DNA of 64,000 nucleotides from an uncultured Candidatus Saccharibacteria bacterium. GTDB lineage: Bacteria; Patescibacteriota; Saccharimonadia; UBA4664; CAYXHD01. The translations under genes and the position numbers were made by a program. This document shows, in pieces, positions 7,259-44,868 of the stretch (the first letter of the stretch is position 1; every line of letters starts with the position of its first letter). Under the pieces are notes generated by a model. That model did no database searches and was not told the DNA's origin. It saw only the letters and a program-made list of their open reading frames with translations. The stretch lies in NCBI GenBank assembly GCA_964585425.1, contig CAZPDI010000001.1, forward strand, positions 4,804 through 68,803. Reading direction: 5' to 3'.

Positions 7259-7320
7259 CTATGCATCCGTCGAAACAGGGTGCGACGCGAAGCACTTTCT
7301 TACATAATCATCCAGGGGGA

Positions 7321-7596
7321 ATGATGAGTATCTCTACGAGTCGAGAAAACGTCATTCGCAGCGTGGCGCAACATTCGGCCGCCGAGCTCGAGCTCAAGGT
7401 ACTCGATGGCGGCGTAGATCAGTCGGGTGTCACCACATATGTACTGAAAAAAGTCACACTCGTCACGCCAAGTCTAGAAGAAGAGGAGCTTCTACTGCTG
7501 CTTATTAATCAGCAGCTTCGATGCGGTCTGTTCGTTACTGAACTCAGAATCTGTTACCCCATGACCTCGATGGTCAAGTTCATCAGCCTCAACTAG
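7321..7596 (+). CDS. Small hypothetical protein, paralog A of a tandem pair
   Basis: The start was moved to ATG 7321, which follows the SD AGGGGGA; the track ORF starts at 7261. It shares RENVI..AAELE..DQSGVT..LLL..NQQLRCGLFVT..YP..MV with the next ORF. Confidence 0.5.
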   Translation: MMSISTSRENVIRSVAQHSAAELELKVLDGGVDQSGVTTYVLKKVTLVTPSLEEEELLLLLINQQLRCGLFVTELRICYPMTSMVKFISLN

Positions 7597-7615
7597 TATC
7601 CAGGAGGTATGACAT

Positions 7616-7885
7616 ATGCCCGTTCCTGAAAAACGCGAAAACCTGATCCATACAATGGCTATGAATCTGGCTGCCGAGCTAGAGGAGGCTGCCGAAAGCA
7701 AGGCGGACCGATCAGGCCTAACCAGGCACTTGCTTAAAGGTCCAATGCATCAACCGGCCAATAATGATGAACTCGTGCTATTGAGAGATTCACTCAATCG
7801 ACAACTCCAATATGGTCTTTACATCACCTGTATGTACACCCTCTATCCAAATGGCTACATGGTAGATGTGATTTGCGTAAATTAA
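7616..7885 (+). CDS. Small hypothetical protein, paralog B of a tandem pair
   Basis: 89 aa behind the SD AGGAGG. It shares RENLI..AAELE..DRSGLT..LVLL..NRQLQYGLYIT..YP..MV with the previous ORF. A T6 run at 7928-7933 follows a GC-rich segment. Confidence 0.55.
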   Translation: MPVPEKRENLIHTMAMNLAAELEEAAESKADRSGLTRHLLKGPMHQPANNDELVLLRDSLNRQLQYGLYITCMYTLYPNGYMVDVICVN

Positions 7886-8222: not shown

Positions 8223-8693
8223 GTGAAACGCATCGGACTACTCTTTGGCTCGTTTAACCCATTGCATAATGGACATCTATTATTATCTGACTCTGCGCAA
8301 AAAAGTACCGAGCTCGATGAGGTCTGGTTTATAGTACAGCCTCAGAACAGCTACAAGCCCATTACGGAGTTATTAGATTATGACACACGTAAAAATCTGA
8401 TTATTACATCCGGTTTATATCTTTTTGAGCCCAAGACGAAAAATTATGCTCATTATATTCTTGAGACACTTAAAGAGATTAAAGGCGCTGACCTGACGCT
8501 CATTCTTGGCGAAGACCTATCGGCAAGCTTCCCCTATTGGGAGGATTACCACGAGATCAAAGAGTTGGCACAAGTGTATGAATCACCGCGCCTGGACGAT
8601 ATCTCATCCGGACTGGTTCGTGATCGCTTACAGGCCGGCCAGCCTATTGACCATCTGGTTCCACGCTCAGTAGCCGATTACCTTCGGCCGTAA
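8223..8693 (+). CDS. nadD: Nicotinate/nicotinamide-nucleotide adenylyltransferase-like (cytidylyltransferase fold)
   Basis: 156 aa with a GTG start. [17 protein letters not shown] is the (H/T)xGH nucleotidyltransferase motif in NadD context. Confidence 0.65.
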
Positions 8694-9879
8694 TGAGCAC
8701 GTCGTCTTCGATGCGGACACCTATCCCCTCTTCGGCGATATAAATACCCGGCTCACATGTCAGCACCATACCGGCTTCGAAGACTGCTTCACGACTGCCC
8801 ACGTCATGAGCGTCAAGACCTAAAAAGTGTTAGGTAATATGTTTAAAATAACGACGATAAGCTGGCCAACCTAGCTCACCTTCTAACTCATCGGCCTTTT
8901 CTAAAGTTTCAAATAATCCAATCTCAACCAACGTATTAGCCATGATCTGAGCCGCTTGGCGTTCAAATTCGTTGAATTTGACTCCTGGTTTCATCAAAGC
9001 TAATGCCTCTTGCTGGACCAATCGGACTGTATCTATAATCTGCTGTTGGCGTTCACTCAACTCATCAATCGAAAACGTTCGCGAGATATCCGCCGCATAA
9101 CCTTCGACTTCGACGCCGACATCAAACAAGACCAGATCACCCTTATTCATTTTAGTCGCATCTGGCTGATGATGAATAATACAGGTATTTTTGCCAAATG
9201 AGATAATAGGCGGGAAGGCTTGCTCATAGCCTCGCGCGCTACAAAATTTAATAAATTCGGCAGCTATTTCTCGCTCAGTAACCCCCACTTTCAACAATGA
9301 TTTGGCGTGAGCTATGGCTAGATGCGTCTCAGATATAGCCTGGGATATCACATCAACTTCTTCATCAGATTTAATCACGCGCAAATTTTCTATTTCGGGA
9401 TTGATCGCCGCCAACTCTACATCTGGATGAGATTCTTTGATCAGGTTCCATAACTGCCAAGCTGCTATCTGACTCACTGCAGTATCTGGCATGTCTATAT
9501 ACACAATTTGTGGCGAATCCTTCAGGAGCTTTGCTATCAGCTCATCTCGCTCTTTATACTCCTGGATCGAATCTATACCGCTCTGAGTCCTCAGTTCAGC
9601 AATCTGATTGCTACGCCCCTCCCAGACTGCCATAAAGGGATGGAGCTGTGTAATGTACAGCTCTTCAATAATACGCTCATCCTGGGTCTTTTTAAGCACC
9701 AAAATCGCATCTGGCTGACTGATACCGGTCAGATACAAAAAATTATTACTCTGCCGGAACGGATAGGTGGCGTCGGCAGTACGCTCAATCTCTGAATTAC
9801 CCGCCAGTATAAGCATACTATCTGGAGCCATAGTGGCCGCTATCTGTTGACGCCGATGTAGATAAGTCGCGCTATTCAT
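8644..9879 (-). pseudogene. pepP: Xaa-Pro aminopeptidase (M24B, PepP-like) interrupted by one in-frame TAA at 8830-8832
   Basis: The track ORF 8830..9879 ends ..YFKHIT*. The same frame continues [61 protein letters not shown] to TAG 8644-8646. That stretch carries the conserved M24 metal-ligand blocks (GLDxHD, EPG, RIED). Confidence 0.75.
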
Positions 9880-9906: not shown

Positions 9907-9936
9907 TTGACATTACTATCACTTGGGAAGATAATA
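9907..9936 (+). promoter_or_regulatory. Candidate promoter of GC-rich cassette 1a
   Basis: TTGACA (9907-9912), an 18-nt spacer, then ATAATA (9931-9936). A 5' stem-loop TGAGCGT/ACGCTCA at 9948-9966 follows. Confidence 0.5.
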
Positions 9937-9977
9937 TCACACATGTTTGAGCGTCTCTGACGCTCAGATAGAAACCC

Positions 9978-10318
9978 GACAAAGCCAACCTACTACCCCG
10001 AAAGAGGTCCCGTGACCAAAATCACGAACCGCAGCATCGCTCCTGCTGGCAGCATCTCCCAGATCGCTCAGCTCCACCAGGACGGAGAGATCGACCGCGA
10101 CCAGACCACTCAGGTGATCGAAGTGGTTGCGGAACATGCCGCAGAGGCGCCAAACACCTGTCCGCGCTGTCAGCGCGCCAACTGCCCAGTGACGAGGGGC
10201 GGCAACTGCCAGTTGCCAGACATGAAGGTGGTGGATCACCTGGTTCGTCAGCTGCAGACCTCCAACTGATCTCGAGTCGGTCCTATGGGATCGAGGGGCG
10301 ACGAGGCTTGGCTTTGTC
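9978..10318 (+). repeat. 11-bp perfect inverted repeat bracketing cassette 1a (leader versus 3' hairpin loop)
   Basis: GACAAAGCCAA at 9978-9988 and TTGGCTTTGTC at 10308-10318. The 3' copy lies in the loop and 3' arm of the hairpin GGGGCGAC(10295-10302)/GTCACCCC(10316-10323). Confidence 0.7.
10012..10269 (+). CDS. GC-rich ORFan, 85 aa, with a C-terminal Cys cluster (CPRCQRANCPVTRGGNC)
   Basis: GTG start 5 nt after the SD AAGAGG. GC3-rich codons. No recognisable family. Confidence 0.55.
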   Translation: MTKITNRSIAPAGSISQIAQLHQDGEIDRDQTTQVIEVVAEHAAEAPNTCPRCQRANCPVTRGGNCQLPDMKVVDHLVRQLQTSN

Positions 10319-10335
10319 ACCCCCTTATAAAATAG

Positions 10336-10364
10336 TTGACTTTACATGATTATTAAAGTATAGT
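10336..10364 (+). promoter_or_regulatory. Candidate promoter of GC-rich cassette 1b
   Basis: TTGACT (10336-10341), a 17-nt spacer, then TATAGT (10359-10364), inside an AT-rich 80-nt spacer between two GC-rich ORFs. Confidence 0.6.
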
Positions 10365-10403
10365 TATTGTCATGCTTGCATACGAAGTATGCGCGCACCT
10401 TAC

Positions 10404-11207
10404 GACAAAGCCAACAACTACACCGAAAGGGGTCCCGATGGGATCTTCTGGAATTCTGGGGTTTCCCAAGGCTGCACACCGCGCCCCCACCATCAGCGAG
10501 GGGTACCAGGAGTACGTCGAGGAGATGACCGGCCTGGCCGTGTGCATGATCTGCGATAGCGGAACATGCCCCGGCGCCAGTGGACGCGCTTGCCCCTATG
10601 AACTCGACGTCTGCACCGTCTGCTGGCAGCTCGACTGCATTAGCGTCTTCGGTCACGACTGCCCTTCGGAGGAACGCTGCAACAACTGCGGTCACCTCCG
10701 GAACGAATTCGGCCATTACAGCAACTGCTCAATGCCCACAATGAAGCTGTGCGACGAGTGCGGGAGCGCAACCTGTCGCGTCAACCCGCCAAAGGAAATG
10801 CGAGAGGAGTACCCGTCGGACTACAATCCGTACTGGGATGACCACCACAGCATCTTCGATACGCTGGGCTGCCTCTTGGGTAGCCCGATCAGCGAGGAAG
10901 AACGGATCGCGGAAGAGATCGCATCGTGTTGGGCTCCGCGCACCGACCAGATGTCCCGAGATCGAGTACGGCAACAGATGCTGAGAACATGGATTGATCG
11001 TGATCTGGACAAAGCAGCTGAGGAAGCTCAGCAGCGCGCCGACCAGATGTCCCAGTCCATGCATCAGCTCACCGAGCTTGCGGACGACTACGACGACGGA
11101 CTGATCTCCGAGAACGTGGTTCTGATGCTCCTCCGGGCTGATCATCGCGGTGTACGGCTCTCCGGGTGACCTTTGAGGGTCGGTGAGCGTCAAGGCTTGG
11201 CTTTGTC
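10404..11207 (+). repeat. Second copy of the same 11-bp inverted repeat pair, bracketing cassette 1b
   Basis: GACAAAGCCAA at 10404-10414 and TTGGCTTTGTC at 11197-11207. The 3' copy lies in the hairpin GGTGAGCGTC(11182-11191)/GTCACTCACC(11205-11214), whose 13-nt loop aAGGCTTGGCTTT is conserved. Confidence 0.7.
10438..11169 (+). CDS. GC-rich ORFan, 243 aa, Cys-rich N-terminal half (14 Cys, four CxxC pairs) and acidic helical C-terminal half
   Basis: The start was moved to ATG 10438, behind the SD GAAAGGGG; the track start 10372 lies in the promoter. CxxC pairs are CMIC, CTVC, CNNC and CDEC. No family recognised. Confidence 0.55.
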   Translation: MGSSGILGFPKAAHRAPTISEGYQEYVEEMTGLAVCMICDSGTCPGASGRACPYELDVCTVCWQLDCISVFGHDCPSEERCNNCGHLRNEFGHYSNCSMPTMKLCDECGSATCRVNPPKEMREEYPSDYNPYWDDHHSIFDTLGCLLGSPISEEERIAEEIASCWAPRTDQMSRDRVRQQMLRTWIDRDLDKAAEEAQQRADQMSQSMHQLTELADDYDDGLISENVVLMLLRADHRGVRLSG

Positions 11208-11275
11208 ACTCACCTAAGTGTATATACACGATAAATACATTTAGGTGAGTATTATTAAGATAAACACAACTTCTA

Positions 11276-11304
11276 TTGACAAATAGGGTTTAGTTTGCTA
11301 TACT
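11276..11304 (+). promoter_or_regulatory. Candidate promoter of GC-rich cassette 1c
   Basis: TTGACA (11276-11281), a 17-nt spacer, then TATACT (11299-11304). Confidence 0.65.
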
Positions 11305-11365
11305 TATGCGCAATCTGGTGGAACACCCATCCGATAGAACACAGACCACAACCCAAGGAAAGCCC

Positions 11366-12103
11366 ATGTCTCAGCTCGTCATCGTCCAGGGCCCCAAGCC
11401 CCGCACGTCCGCGGTGTCCGACAAGGATGCCCACAACCTCCGCCTCCAGGCGGACAAGGTGCTGGCCAGGCACCGCGGTGATCTCCCCCAGGAGATCGTC
11501 ACGCAGCTGACCAGCCCGATGCCCGGCATCGTGGGCATGGGACTGCACGACGCGGCCTCCTGGATCAAGCAGCGCACCGCCAACCTCAAGCTGCAGTACG
11601 TGCAGCAGCACCCCGACTGCGAGGCGGCCATGGCCCTCAAGACCCGAGTCGACAACGTCCTCAACGGCGAGTTCGGCGACAAGGTCAAAAAGAGCCTCGA
11701 CATGCGTGGTCAGCGCATCCTCGAGCTGGACCTGTACCAGATCTTGAGCACCGACCAGCTGAAGAGCTTCGCCCACTTCGTCAAGAAGGCCGAGGCAGTC
11801 GAGGGTCGCTTGCAGACCGAGAAGGCACGCAAGGCGGTGCCGGCCCAATCGCTCCAGATGCTGTTCCCGTCCAAGGAGAAGCGCGAGCGCAAGCCGAAGA
11901 AGGTCAAGCCGGCCTACGCCGGTCTCCCCGCACCGTCCACCGGGATCGTCACCGACTGGAAGAGCGACGTCGGCAGCGTCGGTGCCCCGAACCCCCAGGG
12001 TCCGGCGCCGGCACGCGGCGTCACCCTCCGCAAGTCCGACAAGGCTCGCGCCAAGGGAGTGAAGGGTGGTGGCGTCAAGACCCGTCCGGGGCGACGCAAC
12101 TGA
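11366..12103 (+). CDS. GC-rich ORFan, 245 aa, with a Lys/Arg/Pro/Gly-rich basic C-terminal tail
   Basis: The start was moved to ATG 11366, behind the SD AAGGAAAG; the track start is 11306. The tail reads KEKRERKPKKVKP..KARAKGVKGGGVKTRPGRRN. No family recognised. Confidence 0.55.
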   Translation: MSQLVIVQGPKPRTSAVSDKDAHNLRLQADKVLARHRGDLPQEIVTQLTSPMPGIVGMGLHDAASWIKQRTANLKLQYVQQHPDCEAAMALKTRVDNVLNGEFGDKVKKSLDMRGQRILELDLYQILSTDQLKSFAHFVKKAEAVEGRLQTEKARKAVPAQSLQMLFPSKEKRERKPKKVKPAYAGLPAPSTGIVTDWKSDVGSVGAPNPQGPAPARGVTLRKSDKARAKGVKGGGVKTRPGRRN

Positions 12104-12119
12104 CCAGTTGATCTGCGTT

Positions 12120-12153
12120 CCCCGAGTCATGACATCGTCGTCATGGCTCGGGG
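12120..12153 (+). terminator. GC-rich hairpin closing cassette 1c, convergent with the uvrA 3' end
   Basis: CCCCGAGTCATGAC-atcgtc-GTCATGGCTCGGGG forms a 14-bp stem with one G-U pair. No clear U tract follows. Confidence 0.5.
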
Positions 12154-12163
12154 GATCAACACT

Positions 12164-30181: not shown

Positions 30182-30556
30182 ATGATCACATGTGAAGTGC
30201 AGGACCAGGCTGGCGGGAAGTCCACGAGCGTCATCACCCTCGGTGATGCCCTGGCTGCCGTTGCCTACCTGATCGGCATCAGCGGGAACTCCCAGCTTGA
30301 GTACCACGAGCTGATCGAGGGCCAGTCGTTGACCATCATCTCGGAAGGACATGCCCTCGTTGGGCAGATCGAGATGCCGGACTTCGAGGAGGAGGAGCCC
30401 TACTTCGGCCTGATGTACACCTTCTCCAGCAACGGCGATCGCGACTTCGAGCTGTTCAGCCTGCTGGTTCTGCCGGCAATGTTGCTGAACCTGCAGCAAT
30501 GCGAACCGCAGGTGATCATCGAGCTCGAGCGGATGCGCCAACCGGTGACCGCCTGA
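30182..30556 (+). CDS. GC-rich ORFan, 124 aa, acidic
   Basis: The start was moved to ATG 30182, behind the SD AAAGGAG and a CA-rich leader; the track start 30074 lies in the AT-rich promoter. No family recognised. Confidence 0.55.
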   Translation: MITCEVQDQAGGKSTSVITLGDALAAVAYLIGISGNSQLEYHELIEGQSLTIISEGHALVGQIEMPDFEEEEPYFGLMYTFSSNGDRDFELFSLLVLPAMLLNLQQCEPQVIIELERMRQPVTA

Positions 30557-40040: not shown

Positions 40041-40415
40041 ATGAATGCACCTGCCCGTCCCATGCCCGACATCACCGATGTGGAGCTGACCAAGAAGATC
40101 ATCGATGAACGTGTGAAGCACCACAACCTGCGCCATGAAGATGGTGAAGCGATCTGGATGGTAGTCACGGCCATCGGTCATGCCATCAAGATCGGTGATC
40201 CTCAGTACAGCCCGATGATCGACCGCAACGTCACGGGGCTGCGCAACGAGGCGAGGCCAGGCGAAGTTCCGGTCATCTTGCTGTCCGACCTGAACCGCAT
40301 CTTCTGTGACGACACGTTGATACGCGAGCTGCAGCGGGTGTTCCCGAGCATCGTCAATGATGCGGCGCGCGTTGCCTGCTGGAAGTTCCGCAACTGCATG
40401 TACGGATGCGACTGA
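40041..40415 (+). CDS. GC-rich ORFan, 124 aa (variable partner of module copy 1)
   Basis: ATG follows the SD TAAGGA. GC3-rich codons. It ends in the junction GAC TGA TC ATG. Confidence 0.55.
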   Translation: MNAPARPMPDITDVELTKKIIDERVKHHNLRHEDGEAIWMVVTAIGHAIKIGDPQYSPMIDRNVTGLRNEARPGEVPVILLSDLNRIFCDDTLIRELQRVFPSIVNDAARVACWKFRNCMYGCD

Positions 40416-40417
40416 TC

Positions 40418-40627
40418 ATGCGCCTTCGGATCCCCTGGCGCAAGCAAACCGTGCCGCCGCCACCCGCGACTGTCGCGATGAAGGCTGCGCCCCTGGTGCC
40501 GCCACCTCATCGCCGGATGACGGCCGAAGAACGCGCTGCGTGCTGCCAAGATCAGAGGAAGATCAAGCTGCGTGCTGCCAAGCGTTGTCGGCGCAAGGCC
40601 CGAAAGCGCCGACTGCGCAACAAGTAA
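40418..40627 (+). CDS. Pro-rich / strongly basic mini-protein, 69 aa (conserved partner, copy 1)
   Basis: The start was set at ATG 40418, matching the paralog junction TGATCATG; the track start is 40406. It shares the core VAMKxAPLxPPPxRRMTAEERAA and a K/R tail with ORF 42234..42467. Confidence 0.55.
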   Translation: MRLRIPWRKQTVPPPPATVAMKAAPLVPPPHRRMTAEERAACCQDQRKIKLRAAKRCRRKARKRRLRNK

Positions 40628-40647
40628 CCCCCGTGAGGCGGATCGCC

Positions 40648-40680
40648 GAAAGGTCCCTCTTGCGGGGGATCTTTCGTTAT
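40648..40680 (+). terminator. Terminator hairpin, divergent copy of the conserved island-3 terminator
   Basis: GAAAGGTCCC-tcttgcg-GGGATCTTTC followed by GTTAT. Confidence 0.55.
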
Positions 40681-40687
40681 GGTGATA

Positions 40688-40716
40688 TTGATTTATACCT
40701 GTAAATGTGATTAAAT
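40688..40716 (+). promoter_or_regulatory. Candidate promoter of GC-rich unit 3b
   Basis: TTGATT (40688-40693), a 17-nt spacer, then TTAAAT (40711-40716) with upstream TG. Confidence 0.5.
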
Positions 40717-40750
40717 TTCCCTATTCCGTTTCGAGTCCAAAGGAGAGACC

Positions 40751-40984
40751 ATGACGGACGCACATGCCACGGCCGTCTCCACGGTCTATTTTTGGCTCGA
40801 GTACGAGTTGGGTATCGATAATCCTGATCACGTTGAACTGACCATGATTATCGAGAATGGCTGGCTGCGCTATCGGTGCCCGGCCCACGACATCACCCCG
40901 CTTGAAATCGCCCGCCTCGAAGCTGCCTGCCGGCACCACGCCCATTCTCTTGAAGTGCACCTGAACCTGGAGGTTCAATCATGA
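40751..40984 (+). CDS. GC-rich ORFan, 77 aa
   Basis: ATG follows the SD AAAGGAGAG. ATGA overlap at 40981-40984 couples it to the next ORF. Confidence 0.5.
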   Translation: MTDAHATAVSTVYFWLEYELGIDNPDHVELTMIIENGWLRYRCPAHDITPLEIARLEAACRHHAHSLEVHLNLEVQS

Positions 40985-41733
40985 TTGTCCACAAGCACGA
41001 CATCGATACCGCAGCTCGTCTGGCCGCCAAAGAGCGGTTCATGAACGAGTCATGGCTGGATGATCGCAAGGTGCGATCATGGTTCGCTTGGCTCGGTATC
41101 CGTCCTGACGGTCATCAAGCATTGCGCATCTTGCGCGCTGTGCATGCCACGGCTGCCACCGTGCGTGAGTACAAGATCCACCATCGCCACACGCGCTTCG
41201 GTCGAACGATGCGCCTGCAGCGCCGGCTCCCACCGTGGCCCGCCAAGTACGCGGATACCCCGGTCATCAATGCCGCGCAGATGCTGCTGGTGACTCAGCG
41301 CACGGACTACATCCACCTCACGGAGCTGACGCGACCAATTACGGGTACCAGTTATCGGCACGGCGACAATCGACGCGTCGATATGGAAACGTGCAAGATG
41401 TTCCTGGAGAACGTGCAGAGCAAGTTCATGCGCGAAGCCGTTTGGTCAGATGAGTTGGTATGTATCGAGAGCTTTGCGCGGCTCGGCCTGACGCCCGATG
41501 AGCTGCTGGTGGCCGAGATGGCTCTGATCCGTCTGATGAGTAGGTATCGGCACGAAAAGGGGCTTACCTGGTATCTGATGCCGACCTATGGCAGCCGGAG
41601 CCGCCGCTTGCACACCCTCACCATGGGTGATTTCTTGAACATCACCCGATTTCTCCAACCCAACTATGGCGACACCGACATGGAGTTTCTCATGACGCTG
41701 GCCGATCGTCTGCGTTCGCGACTTGCGACCTGA
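40981..41733 (+). CDS. GC-rich ORFan, 250 aa, Arg/His-rich
   Basis: Translationally coupled to the 77-aa ORF. No motif recognised. Confidence 0.55.
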   Translation: MIVHKHDIDTAARLAAKERFMNESWLDDRKVRSWFAWLGIRPDGHQALRILRAVHATAATVREYKIHHRHTRFGRTMRLQRRLPPWPAKYADTPVINAAQMLLVTQRTDYIHLTELTRPITGTSYRHGDNRRVDMETCKMFLENVQSKFMREAVWSDELVCIESFARLGLTPDELLVAEMALIRLMSRYRHEKGLTWYLMPTYGSRSRRLHTLTMGDFLNITRFLQPNYGDTDMEFLMTLADRLRSRLAT

Positions 41734-41753
41734 TCTCGACACATACCCTCGCG

Positions 41754-41796
41754 GGGGCTTTTCTACGGAAAGGTCCCTGCGGGGGATCTTTCGTTT
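41754..41796 (+). terminator. Conserved 43-nt terminator element, copy A
   Basis: The element reads GGGGCTTTTCTACGGAAAGGTCCCTGCGGGGGATCTTTCGTTT. It contains the mini-hairpin CTTTTC-tacg-GAAAGG plus a 10-bp stem GAAAGGTCCC/GGGATCTTTC and a T-rich tail. Confidence 0.65.
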
Positions 41797-41801
41797 ATAG
41801 C

Positions 41802-41830
41802 TTGCAATATCAATACTTTAAATGTATAAT
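41802..41830 (+). promoter_or_regulatory. Candidate promoter of GC-rich unit 3c
   Basis: TTGCAA (41802-41807), a 17-nt spacer, then TATAAT (41825-41830) preceded by TG. Confidence 0.65.
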
Positions 41831-41859
41831 TTGTAAATCCGTACGACCAAGGAGTACCC

Positions 41860-42231
41860 TTGACCGAAGCCAATACCCTACCCAAGGCCGATGCCAGCGT
41901 CAAGCTGTCCGACGACATCATCGCAAGCTGCTACGAGGGCTGCGATCCCCGTGAGTCCGATCGAGCTCGCGGCTGCATCGCCGCCCTCAAGGACCTGCTA
42001 CGGCTCGCCGAGAAGACGCCGAACGACGCGCGCTACCAGGAGATCCGGGAGTTCGACGCCGACACCCTGACCGTTGGCCAGTTCATCACCCTGATGTACC
42101 TGCCGGCGATGTCGCCGAATCAGCCCCGCCAGCTGATGCGCAACGTGCGTAGCAACTGGGGGCGACTCAACCAGCGAGTTCTCATCGAGCTGCGAGACAA
42201 GCTGGATGAGCGCTACGAGCCCCAGGACTGA
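41860..42231 (+). CDS. GC-rich ORFan, 123 aa (variable partner of module copy 2)
   Basis: TTG start 5 nt after the SD AAGGAG. It ends in the same GAC TGA TC ATG junction as 40041..40415, but the two proteins show no visible similarity. Confidence 0.5.
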   Translation: MTEANTLPKADASVKLSDDIIASCYEGCDPRESDRARGCIAALKDLLRLAEKTPNDARYQEIREFDADTLTVGQFITLMYLPAMSPNQPRQLMRNVRSNWGRLNQRVLIELRDKLDERYEPQD

Positions 42232-42233
42232 TC

Positions 42234-42467
42234 ATGGGCATCTGGAACTCTCGGCGCAAGAAGACGACACCACCGCCACCTCCTCCTGCACCTCCTCCGC
42301 CGCCCGCGGCTGTCGCGATGAAGACTGCACCACTGGCGCCGCCACCGCGTCGCCGAATGACGGCCGAAGAACGCGCCGCTCTCAAGCTGCCCAAAGTGAA
42401 GGCCCGGCAGCGCCTGGCCAAGAACCGACGCGCCAAGGTCAGGAAGCGCAAGCACAAGAAGTCCTGA
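42234..42467 (+). CDS. Pro-rich / strongly basic mini-protein, 77 aa (conserved partner, copy 2)
   Basis: Paralog of 40418..40627. It contains PPPPPPAPPPPPAAVAMKTAPLAPPPRRRMTAEERAA and the tail KARQRLAKNRRAKVRKRKHKKS. Confidence 0.6.
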   Translation: MGIWNSRRKKTTPPPPPPAPPPPPAAVAMKTAPLAPPPRRRMTAEERAALKLPKVKARQRLAKNRRAKVRKRKHKKS

Positions 42468-42479
42468 TCGCGCCCCTGT

Positions 42480-42523
42480 GGGGACTTTTCTACGGAAAGG
42501 TCCCTGCGGGGGATCTTTCGTTT
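42480..42523 (+). terminator. Conserved 44-nt terminator element, copy B
   Basis: The element reads GGGGACTTTTCTACGGAAAGGTCCCTGCGGGGGATCTTTCGTTT. It is identical to copy A except for one inserted base. Confidence 0.65.
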
Positions 42524-42534
42524 TTAAATGAGAA

Positions 42535-42558
42535 AGACCCAGGATTTCTCCTAGGTCT
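42535..42558 (-). terminator. Hairpin with GAAA tetraloop terminating the minus-strand 143-aa cassette
   Basis: On the minus strand: AGACCTAGGA-gaaa-TCCTGGGTCT, a 10-bp stem with one G-U pair, followed by TTCTCATTT. Confidence 0.55.
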
Positions 42559-44457: not shown

Positions 44458-44868
44458 ATGCCAAGCGCACAGACCATCCTCCCTCTGACCGCCGAACAGG
44501 TGGCCATGCCCGTGACCGCTGCCATCCTCACCACGGAGGACATCATCGGCGACCACGGGAGGTACCCGAAGGACATCGCTCACAGCTTGTCCACCATCTG
44601 CGAGTTCCTGCAGGAGGTCAAGCGGGAGGTCAAGCAGAGTCCAAGGGCCTACCTCGGCTGGTTGGAGTTGGCGGATGAGAACGGGGTGCGCTTCAGCGAG
44701 CGCGATTACCCCAGCATCACCGCAGGGTTCCTCCTGGCCGTGATGGAATCCAGCGCCGCCTGGGGCACCGTGATGAAGCACGGTCCGGAGGACTACTGCT
44801 TCGAGCAGCTGAACATGCTGAGGACGGCGGTCTACGCCCTCCTCTTCAAGCGGTCGCTGGCTGGCTGA
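44458..44868 (+). CDS. GC-rich ORFan, 136 aa
   Basis: The start was moved to ATG 44458, behind the SD AAAAGGAAA; the track start 44413 lies in the promoter. No motif recognised. Confidence 0.55.
   Translation: MPSAQTILPLTAEQVAMPVTAAILTTEDIIGDHGRYPKDIAHSLSTICEFLQEVKREVKQSPRAYLGWLELADENGVRFSERDYPSITAGFLLAVMESSAAWGTVMKHGPEDYCFEQLNMLRTAVYALLFKRSLAG

Follow-up and report, generated by a model that had tools for sequence, protein, structure and literature searches.

What are three small GC-rich genes doing in single file between two conserved genes of a small-genome bacterium whose core genes have a quite different base composition? The question is raised by a 64,000-nucleotide (nt) stretch of DNA, referred to here as the window (contig CAZPDI010000001.1, positions 4,804 to 68,803), from an uncultured Candidatus Saccharibacteria bacterium, in which the open reading frames (ORFs) ORF1, ORF2 and ORF3 lie between pepP and uvrA. 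The answer towards which we lean, with a little more confidence than doubt, is that three autonomous expression cassettes form an array here that varies between strains and lies in a recombination-prone hot spot, and that their products are fast-evolving accessory proteins with a likely part in host interaction. Judged from alignments of related loci, the most conserved component of this locus is a non-coding scaffold, kept in at least five related lineages, within which the ORFs are replaced, mosaic or absent. That component was overlooked by the original prediction, which was made from the letters of the window.

Each unit contains a single plus-strand ORF. ORF1 (10012-10269) begins with GTG and encodes 85 amino acids (aa), ORF2 (10438-11169) encodes 243 aa, and ORF3 (11366-12103) encodes 245 aa. 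Independent gene calls on a Logan metagenome contig gave identical 243-aa and 245-aa products for ORF2 and ORF3. In view of these calls and the lack of a Shine-Dalgarno site, the 265-aa versions of both proteins, which would start within the promoter or leader, are unsupported. The block is flanked by the gene for Xaa-Pro aminopeptidase (pepP, minus strand) and by uvrA, which also lies on the minus strand and is convergent with the three ORFs; the UvrA of the window is 93.6% identical to a protein of a relative (L002) that bears Pfam UvrA domains. The original prediction had described three plus-strand GC-rich units at this position, each behind a separate promoter, and coordinates, promoter scan and composition all agree with that description. 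Its AT-rich spacers of about 80-100 nt correspond to the AT-rich parts of the two intergenic gaps, the whole of which measure 168 and 196 nt.

The change in composition at the gene borders is abrupt, with a GC content of 58-74% in ORF1-3 against 31-44% in the spacers. The G+C fraction at third codon positions (GC3), taken in frame, is 0.76 for ORF1, 0.73 for ORF2 and 0.90 for ORF3, and that of the core genes pepP, uvrA, uvrB, nadD and typA of the window is 0.43-0.51. The order GC3 > GC1 > GC2 (third, first and second positions) holds in the annotated frame of ORF1-3 and in no other frame. ORF1-3 are protein-coding genes.

The behaviour of the locus was followed in the corresponding intervals of related genomes, recovered by exact-protein look-up and designated by L numbers. 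The window carries units 1, 2 and 3 between pepP and uvrA. In the close relatives L005 and L006, whose flanks are mostly 83-96% identical to the window (one 200-nt bin is at 76%), unit 1 matches that of the window in its promoter, its leader and its first 19 codons and then has a different body of equal length, unit 2 is absent as a whole (889 nt), and unit 3 is 99% identical up to about codon 190 and then continues into a different tail. Three further relatives (L002-L004), with core genes at about 78% nt identity, have the same unit-1 scaffold around an unrelated 101-aa ORF, together with a 40% identical ORF3 that carries the tail type of the window. Elsewhere the interval contains a 94-aa unit-1 ORF and a 339-aa protein with the ORF3 tail of the window (L117), a 152-aa unit-1 ORF with a Cys motif and a gene of the ORF3 family, called family B below (L118), a family B gene and a new 242-aa ORF (L123-L125), or two family-B-like units in tandem (L119). 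In L110 and L111 there is a single unrelated ORF of 191 aa, and a reading of the L110 copy as a divergent ORF3 is unsupported (E = 0.047).

Several of these differences bear the marks of recombination. The window and L005 have a unit 3 that is 99% identical, set in flanks of 76-96% identity, which indicates that recent exchange between strains does occur. The junction of the 889-nt presence/absence polymorphism of unit 2 maps to a repeated 3' box, described below, and where the ORF1 body and the ORF3 tail are exchanged the breakpoints fall within the ORFs, not at boxes. All told, at least three recombination tracts can be traced within 2.2 kb between near relatives. On the evidence of these alignments, strains exchange alleles and modules by recombination, the breakpoints lying both inside the ORFs and at their edges.

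Three other routes to diversity were considered and are not supported. Mutagenesis of ORF1 by a diversity-generating retroelement was rejected, as the substitutions between variants are of all types and the window has no reverse transcriptase. There are no silent donor copies for gene conversion of the pilS kind in the 64-kb window, and an invertible segment is not indicated at any of the six loci, all of which have the same orientation, with no invertase seen. A diversity-generating retroelement (bAvd accessory gene plus reverse transcriptase) does occur in one relative, at L116:5276-6663, and the same contig has a GC-rich 304-aa ORF (GC3 0.80) inserted beside uvrB; both are absent from the window. 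Logan short-read contigs (L001, L114, L115, L123-L125) often start or stop at the cassette spacers or in the 3' part of uvrA; L001, for instance, starts at window position 10385, and the start of L123 is 67 nt upstream of its family B gene. Such ends are what one would expect where cassette content varies among the strains of a sample.

The scaffold that survives these exchanges begins with promoters, which were sought by matching the σ70 consensus (in positions of 12) with shuffled sequence as background. The region holds 8 promoter-like sites, compared with 1.7 +/- 1.4 in the shuffles. The predicted unit-1 promoter (9907-9935; this and the following features of the three units are on the plus strand) had been given as TTGACA-18-ATAATA; the site stands, and is better read one base earlier as TTGACA-17-GATAAT, with 11/12 matches. 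It is conserved in L005, L002 and L118. The other two promoters were recovered by the scan just as proposed, TTGACT-17-TATAGT for unit 2 (10336-10364, 10/12) and TTGACA-17-TATACT with an extended -10 TG for unit 3 (11276-11304, 11/12), the latter being conserved in L005, L002, L117, L118 and L119.

Downstream of the promoters of units 1 and 2 lies a structured leader. That of unit 1 has a predicted 5' stem-loop of 12 bp (9944-9970), the leader folding with -25 kcal/mol (z = -4.7), and the position of this hairpin is kept in each relative while its sequence is different in each. It is followed by the 5' box CGACAAAGCCAAC (9977-9989), a CA-rich spacer and the Shine-Dalgarno site GAAAGAGG. Unit 2 repeats the arrangement, with a stem-loop at 10373-10397 predicted by folding, the 5' box CGACAAAGCCAAC at 10403-10415 and the Shine-Dalgarno site GAAAGGGG; unit 3 has no intact 5' box. 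Across 6 scaffolds from 5 lineages the 12-nt box CGACAAAGCCAA is invariant, and the Shine-Dalgarno site takes the form GAAAG(G/A)GG.

The 3' ends are equally structured. Two hairpins follow ORF1 (10277-10323; -28.4 kcal/mol, z = -2.8), the second of which holds the 3' box GGCTTGGCTTTGTCAC (10305-10320), complementary to the 5' box. Unit 2 ends in a small hairpin, a box hairpin (11189-11207) and a long hairpin (together 11167-11250; -35.6 kcal/mol, z = -4.1), the last of these (11208-11250) having 19-nt arms that are 89% complementary, with about 16-19 paired positions; the set is conserved in L005, L002, L117 and L118. Within the same segment, between unit 2 and promoter 3, GGTGAG (11181), CTCACC (11209) and GGTGAG (11244) allow two mutually exclusive pairings in an attenuator-like arrangement that is conserved, with sequence changes, in the same four relatives. 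Between the convergent ORF3 and uvrA lies a terminal hairpin (12107-12160), probably a bidirectional terminator. The 14-bp hairpin that had been predicted to end the block is its inner stem (12120-12133 paired with 12140-12153), which is perfect (-35 kcal/mol, z = -5.3), and compensatory changes were found at 7 of 21 pairs among the 6 loci compared. Each unit has promoter-like and terminator-like signals of its own, and the alignments show them to be conserved in relatives.

The relation between the 5' and 3' boxes is an exact one. The 3' hairpins across scaffolds hold TGGCTTTGTCAC, exactly complementary over its first ten bases to the core of the 5' box. The 11-mer GACAAAGCCAA is found at 9978-9988, 10308-10318, 10404-10414 and 11197-11207, two copies per strand, with one further exact copy in the window (32271, within a gene); allowing up to one mismatch, the window has 11 matches where 1.5 are expected. 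In unit 2, two GACAAAGCCAA boxes also bracket promoter 2, 85 nt apart. The complementary boxes could serve in RNA pairing, as protein-binding sites or as a recombination joint. Positions flanking the boxes do not lengthen the putative RNA duplex, and the boxes themselves, being invariant, show no covariation.

Searches for the scaffold in other collections gave no relatives. Rfam returned nothing for the region at the gathering threshold or at E<=1. A scan of genome contigs for the 5' box followed by a Shine-Dalgarno site produced 103 unrelated chance matches, none in relatives of the locus, and metagenome contigs scanned for the 3' box gave 0 matches; the latter collection evidently lacks these genomes, since L002 carries the 3'-box pattern. 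Three 18-nt box matches in viral contigs were rejected as chance, lying inside unrelated AT-rich phage genes.

The proteins framed by this scaffold fall into two groups. ORF3 belongs to family B, which an exhaustive search of 1.84 billion representatives with a profile built on the ORF3 alignment found in six full-length clusters at 50% identity; the same search returned a 339-aa protein matching the C-terminal tail only and a 1541-aa match whose 8 matched stretches are presumed to be of low complexity. ORF3 itself is found in two of 5.8 billion protein clusters, and further members, 32-40% identical, make up four additional 50%-identity clusters. Genomic context could be read for 5 of the 6 clusters, all of them at the pepP-uvrA locus, and a scan of metagenome contigs with the family B profile yielded one short locus, L119. 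No family B relative was seen in viral contigs, nor did tblastn searches of phages (with ORF2 and ORF3) or of plasmids (with ORF3) give a match.

Twenty residues are invariant in the 7-sequence alignment of family B, which also shows a conserved linear motif, RERKPKxxKPxYAGLPPV. ORF3 has a net charge of +21 and is predicted to form six helices over residues 19-156 (pLDDT, a per-residue confidence measure, 55-88) followed by a disordered basic tail. The Lys/Arg/Gly/Pro composition claimed for this tail is borne out by the last 60 residues (12 K/R, 18 G/P and 3 D/E). Tails in the family are of at least three unrelated basic types, whose last 30 residues have net charges between +6 and +10. The tail of the window, ...KGxKGGGVKTRPGRRN, is also present on distant family members and on the unrelated 339-aa protein, and the closest relative of ORF3, 97% identical over the first 198 residues, has another tail nonetheless. 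By these comparisons the ORF3 group is a tiny, lineage-restricted family with interchangeable tails.

ORF1 and ORF2 (family A) have the module C-x2-C-x4-C-x7-C in common, with one copy in ORF1 and two exact and two degenerate repeats in the Cys-rich N-terminal half of ORF2; presumably the module binds metal. ORF1 had been described as ending in a Cys cluster, and 19 residues in fact come after it. Its C-terminal module CPRCQRANCPVTRGGNCQLPDM has a counterpart, CSNCERPSCPSLRGGLCPLPDM, in the unit-1 protein of L118, and its N-terminal part is common to L005, relative to which the body is swapped. The predicted 14 Cys in about 80 residues of ORF2, including CMIC, CTVC, CNNC and CDEC, are found at residues 36-113 (of 16 Cys in total), and the acidic helical half also holds up, with 21 D/E against 12 K/R in the C-terminal half, predicted helical, and a net charge of -20 for the whole protein. 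The N-terminus of ORF2, MGSSGILGF, resembles those of unit-1 proteins of two lineages. ORF1 had no match at E<=10 in a search of the 5.8 billion clusters, where ORF2 matched only itself (same strain), and no zinc-ribbon or zinc-knuckle profile in Pfam or NCBIfam matched the Cys region at E<=1; the multi-zinc-ribbon region of the original prediction is still a guess. None of the three proteins has a hydrophobic or membrane segment or a Sec signal (maximum KD19 < 1.0).

ORF1-3 gave nothing above noise in Pfam, NCBIfam, PHROG, PADLOC or PDB sequences, in keeping with the claim that they belong to no recognised family. Placement in ordinary conserved families of the candidate phyla radiation (CPR), named beforehand as an outcome that would count against the prediction, was not what the homology searches gave. 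The view of the three as independent ORFans does not hold, given the small family around ORF3 and the Cys motif common to ORF1 and ORF2. In sum, the earlier observation is confirmed and the earlier interpretation of the block is supported in part, and families A and B are, as far as sequence comparison can tell, new, lineage-restricted, fast-evolving and modular.

Read as a cassette, each unit consists of a native conserved scaffold (near-consensus σ70 promoter in an AT-rich spacer, 5' stem-loop, box CGACAAAGCCAA, unstructured CA-rich leader, strong Shine-Dalgarno site and 3' hairpins) that frames a GC-rich ORF. Each cassette gene would be transcribed alone and strongly, and its mRNA may be stabilised by the 5' and 3' hairpins. 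The products would be soluble accessory proteins under diversifying selection, with the host bacterium or foreign nucleic acid as their most likely target, and the lifestyle of such bacteria makes the host interface the most likely place of action. They would thus be candidate translocated effectors, with the family B tails as a possible export or binding module. The GC-rich composition would reflect origin in, or exchange with, a GC-rich gene pool, or would be upheld by a local force.

The idea of export draws on known secretion substrates. Proteins exported by type IV secretion systems (T4SS), such as VirE2 and VirF of Agrobacterium, have C-terminal, positively charged, disordered translocation signals. 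In a cultured Saccharibacterium, living as an epibiont requires a T4SS for which no substrate is known (PMC12857230; 10.1101/2025.01.22.634366). Like such signals, the family B tails are predicted to be disordered and are positively charged, modular and also present on an unrelated N-terminal domain, in proteins with no Sec signal; on the other hand, the window contains no T4SS genes, and ORF1 and ORF2 are without such tails. The likeness is a lead, and a tail of this kind could equally bind nucleic acid, as the original prediction proposed.

A number of observations weigh against the cassette-array interpretation or limit it. The syntenic intervals come from only 5-6 lineages, mostly on short contigs. 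The structural models are of low confidence, with a pLDDT of 57 for ORF3 and of 41 for the AlphaFold2 model of ORF2, computed with no alignment, in which the Cys region (about 30) is unusable. ORF2 resembles family A only at the level of the motif (E = 0.006, from one comparison). ORF1-3 show no known type of secretion signal, and basic C-termini are not general among the GC-rich units, ORF1 and ORF2 being without them. Genes for a T4SS, a recombinase or an integrase were not found in the 64-kb window, where the recombinase check covered the listed ORFs of at least 100 aa, about 20 of them scanned against profile libraries. The role proposed for the cassette proteins is something we infer from sequence.

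The composition of the cassettes bears on the competing explanations. Codon usage in the GC-rich ORFs (AAG 0.97, CAG 0.94, AAC 0.99, TAC 0.97, TTC 0.97, ATC 0.96, with CTC/CTG and CGC favoured as well) has a pattern that we take to be that of high-GC Actinobacteria, the usual hosts of Saccharibacteria. In relatives, cassette GC3 is mostly 0.73-0.96 beside core genes at 0.43-0.53, the extremes being 0.995 for the 191-aa ORF of L110 and 0.56 for unit 1 of L117, the sole exception. The L110 ORF (14982-15557, minus strand) is the only cassette ORF of its locus and keeps this value over 191 codons, with adjoining core genes at about 0.51, which is more extreme than would be expected of any donor genome. 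The UvrA proteins of the window and L002, for all their 93.6% aa identity, agree at 39% of four-fold degenerate sites, so that core synonymous sites are near saturation, and a foreign composition should not have survived that much neutral change. The GC-richness is then one of three things: actively maintained, by codon selection or GC-biased gene conversion; re-imported from a GC-rich pool that is absent from databases; or circulated among strains.

GC-biased gene conversion at a hot spot may have driven up GC3, an explanation that concerns composition only and is compatible with a cassette array; we think it rather unlikely to have been the cause. The finding of at least three recombination tracts in 2.2 kb speaks for it, as do a GC3 of 0.995 in one relative, above the expectation for a donor genome, and a GC-richness that lasts over saturating divergence. 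Against it, the spacers within this hot spot remain at 31-44% GC, GC1 and GC2 are raised too, and the same composition is seen in single isolated units elsewhere.

Plain recent horizontal transfer, from a GC-rich donor such as an actinobacterial host, its phage or a plasmid, would make ORF1-3 passenger genes without a particular role. A GC content and GC3 far above the genome values are what such a history predicts, the codon usage is of the kind seen in high-GC Actinobacteria, and the GC-rich pyrF, pyrE and pyrC of the window are plausible acquisitions. Set against this are the lack of a donor homologue among about 15 billion proteins or in phage and plasmid collections, and the lack of an integrase, tRNA or direct-repeat boundary. 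The spacers are AT-rich, native-looking and conserved, unlike a transferred block. Moreover, the same family occupies the same locus with a GC3 of about 0.9 in lineages whose core synonymous sites are saturated, which means that no amelioration has taken place. We consider recent transfer improbable.

A comparably low standing is held by the possibility, implied by the original prediction, that the proteins are internal regulators, the Cys proteins being zinc-binding and ORF3 a nucleoid or RNA-binding protein that works through its basic tail. It would account for the regular Cys spacing, conserved between ORF1 and unit 1 of L118, for the charge of +21 and the disordered Lys/Arg/Gly/Pro tail of ORF3, and for the lack of a secretion signal or transmembrane segment. 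Neither DNA-binding nor zinc-ribbon models match, however, and in strains as close as 92-94% identity one would not normally see a regulator of housekeeping functions replaced, truncated or missing. The ORF3 tail is, in addition, exchangeable and found on an unrelated N-terminal domain.

A bolder extension of the cassette reading, which we hold to be very improbable, is that the cassettes are epibiont genes adapted to the host cell and not to the epibiont itself. It fits the Actinobacteria-like codons kept over saturating divergence, with GC3 up to 0.995, and it fits the strong, generic promoters and Shine-Dalgarno sites and the GC-rich bodies, which would escape AT-targeted silencing. Expression could take place in the GC-rich host, from DNA or mRNA delivered to it, for example via the relaxase-less type IV system on which epibiosis depends; alternatively, the family B tails could act as the signal for translocation by that system. 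A recent preprint proposes that Patescibacteria keep a codon usage "complementary" to that of GC-rich hosts, avoiding translation of host mRNA (10.64898/2026.06.21.733656; bioRxiv, 2026). Against that proposal host-like cassette genes stand out, and host-like genes kept in a parasite genome would, if the tuning were real, be the opposite of the complementary-codon expectation.

More doubtful still is a site-specific cassette system, integron-like or invertible, that uses the 10-11-nt inverted boxes as recombination sites. The exact inverted repeats GACAAAGCCAA / TTGGCTTTGTC flank ORF1 and ORF2, both boxes are invariant across lineages, the unit-2 indel junction lies in the 3' box, and the small ORFan genes are tandem and in a single orientation. 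Integron arrays have a similar look, with tandem, co-oriented, strain-variable small ORFan genes, hairpin-forming imperfect palindromes between them and an indel junction in a repeated element. They differ in that intI, attI and attC core sites (RYYYAAC / GTTRRRY) are lacking here, the 3' elements being GGCTTGGCTTTGTCAC hairpins, that every cassette has a promoter of its own, and that breakpoints (ORF1 body, ORF3 tail) also fall inside ORFs. No integrase or invertase gene was found among the listed window ORFs of at least 100 aa or in related loci, nor any recombinase among the Pfam-annotated gene calls of the latter; no cassette is inverted (6/6 loci have the same orientation), and unit 3 is without an intact 5' box. 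The unit-2 indel is explained equally well by homologous recombination between two 40-nt repeats.

The weakest alternative, that the ORFs are chance open frames in GC-rich filler or structured RNA, can appeal to the lack of family matches for ORF1-3 and to the readiness with which GC-rich DNA yields long ORFs on either strand (for example at 11273-12130 on the minus strand), and is already effectively refuted, the filler being rejected by the three-base periodicity, which fits the annotated frames only, by protein-level conservation of family B (40% aa identity at 56% nt identity, in an alignment that stays in frame throughout) and by the lack of an Rfam match at E<=1, with Shine-Dalgarno sites at the correct spacing besides.

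If the locus is a cassette array, what known arrangement does it most resemble? Phage morons, as described by Hendrix and Juhala, are extra genes of deviant composition, with their own promoter and factor-independent terminator, between two prophage genes. The cassettes resemble them in having one ORF per unit with its own σ70 promoter and hairpin terminator (both predicted here), in a composition sharply unlike that of the neighbours, in their placement between two conserved genes, and in being present or absent between close relatives. They differ in that they lie in the chromosome between pepP and uvrA and not in a prophage, with no phage genes nearby and no PHROG or phage homologues found, in forming tandem arrays, and in keeping promoter, leader and terminator as a reusable frame while the ORF changes. 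Morons are the closest architecture, in a setting that is not the prophage context by which they are defined. Classical genomic islands combine a deviant composition with an identifiable donor or homologues elsewhere; here the composition is deviant and no homologues were found outside the locus, and an integrase, a tRNA target and flanking direct repeats are lacking. Hypervariation has been reported in a Gracilibacterium (PMC6851277), and the hypervariable accessory regions of CPR bacteria (Patescibacteria) are similar in their strain-variable, family-less proteins within the reduced genome of a probable epibiont; the difference lies in a persistent genome-foreign composition within a conserved expression frame. 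Our literature searches turned up no description of GC-rich cassettes in Saccharibacteria, or of such a conserved frame.

The "Island 1" of the original prediction is one of at least six such sites in the window. The recurring architecture, in which an AT-rich consensus promoter and a C-rich leader precede a GC-rich ORF that ends in a GC-rich hairpin, is found at five further sites in the window, and its recurrence there and in relatives makes Island 1 one instance of a lineage-wide layout for accessory genes. Two isolated GC-rich units lie between core genes on the plus strand, encoding 124 aa (30182-30556; no NCBIfam or PADLOC match) and 136 aa (44458-44868; no PHROG, NCBIfam or PADLOC match), each with a GC3 in the range 0.75-0.84, a consensus promoter, a CA-rich leader and a terminal hairpin. 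A second GC-rich island (40041-42540, plus strand) has three promoter-led bicistronic units of 124+73, 77+250 and 123+77 aa, the products of which gave no Pfam, NCBIfam or PHROG match. These units have a common terminator family, ...GGGGGATCTTTCGTT, in three copies, and include paralogous small ORFs (40406-40627 and 42234-42467) that are Pro-rich and extremely basic.

At 57693-54689 (minus strand) are pyrF (subfamily 2), pyrE (Thermus type) and pyrC (dimer type), with GC3 0.66-0.78, each of which has its own copy of the promoter module TCGCAATTTATGAA-AATAG-TGTATA plus a hairpin, a patchwork pyrimidine pathway of single-gene units. In a relative, L113:4967-5431 (minus strand) is a strain-specific cassette of 154 aa with GC3 0.96, a TTGACA promoter, a GTG start and a 12-bp hairpin; it sits between two core genes, where the window has no insert.

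Some neighbouring features of the window are recorded for completeness. The pepP gene (8644-9879, minus strand) has an in-frame stop where the close relative L005 has Ser, which puts the catalytic C-terminal part in a separate ORF (8644-8802); the stop could mark a pseudogene, a sequencing error or a site of read-through. Upstream of nadD, at 7261-7885 (plus strand), are two tandem paralogous small ORFs of 111 and 89 aa that both end ...QL(R/Q)(C/Y)GL(F/Y)(V/I)T...YP and have no NCBIfam match; they are present in L005 and L006, and L002 has other ORFs at that position. The gene content, with a split transketolase, LytR-CpsA-Psr, a sulfatase of the lipoteichoic acid (LTA)-synthase type and, in one relative, a diversity-generating retroelement, fits a Saccharibacteria-like bacterium without proving it.

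What the locus means for these bacteria depends on how much of the above holds. Should the proposed role be correct, the cassettes would supply sequence-defined candidate host-interaction factors for an epibiotic, reduced-genome lineage, comprising two new protein families, a common tail module and a conserved linear motif. Independent of function, they represent a moron-like layout of accessory genes in a cellular chromosome, with a reusable frame and exchanged cargo. They also pose an evolutionary puzzle, in that third positions of 73-99% G+C have persisted beside core genes near 45-50% across saturated synonymous divergence, with implications for biased gene conversion in bacteria, for the amelioration of foreign genes and for current ideas about codon usage between Patescibacteria and their hosts.

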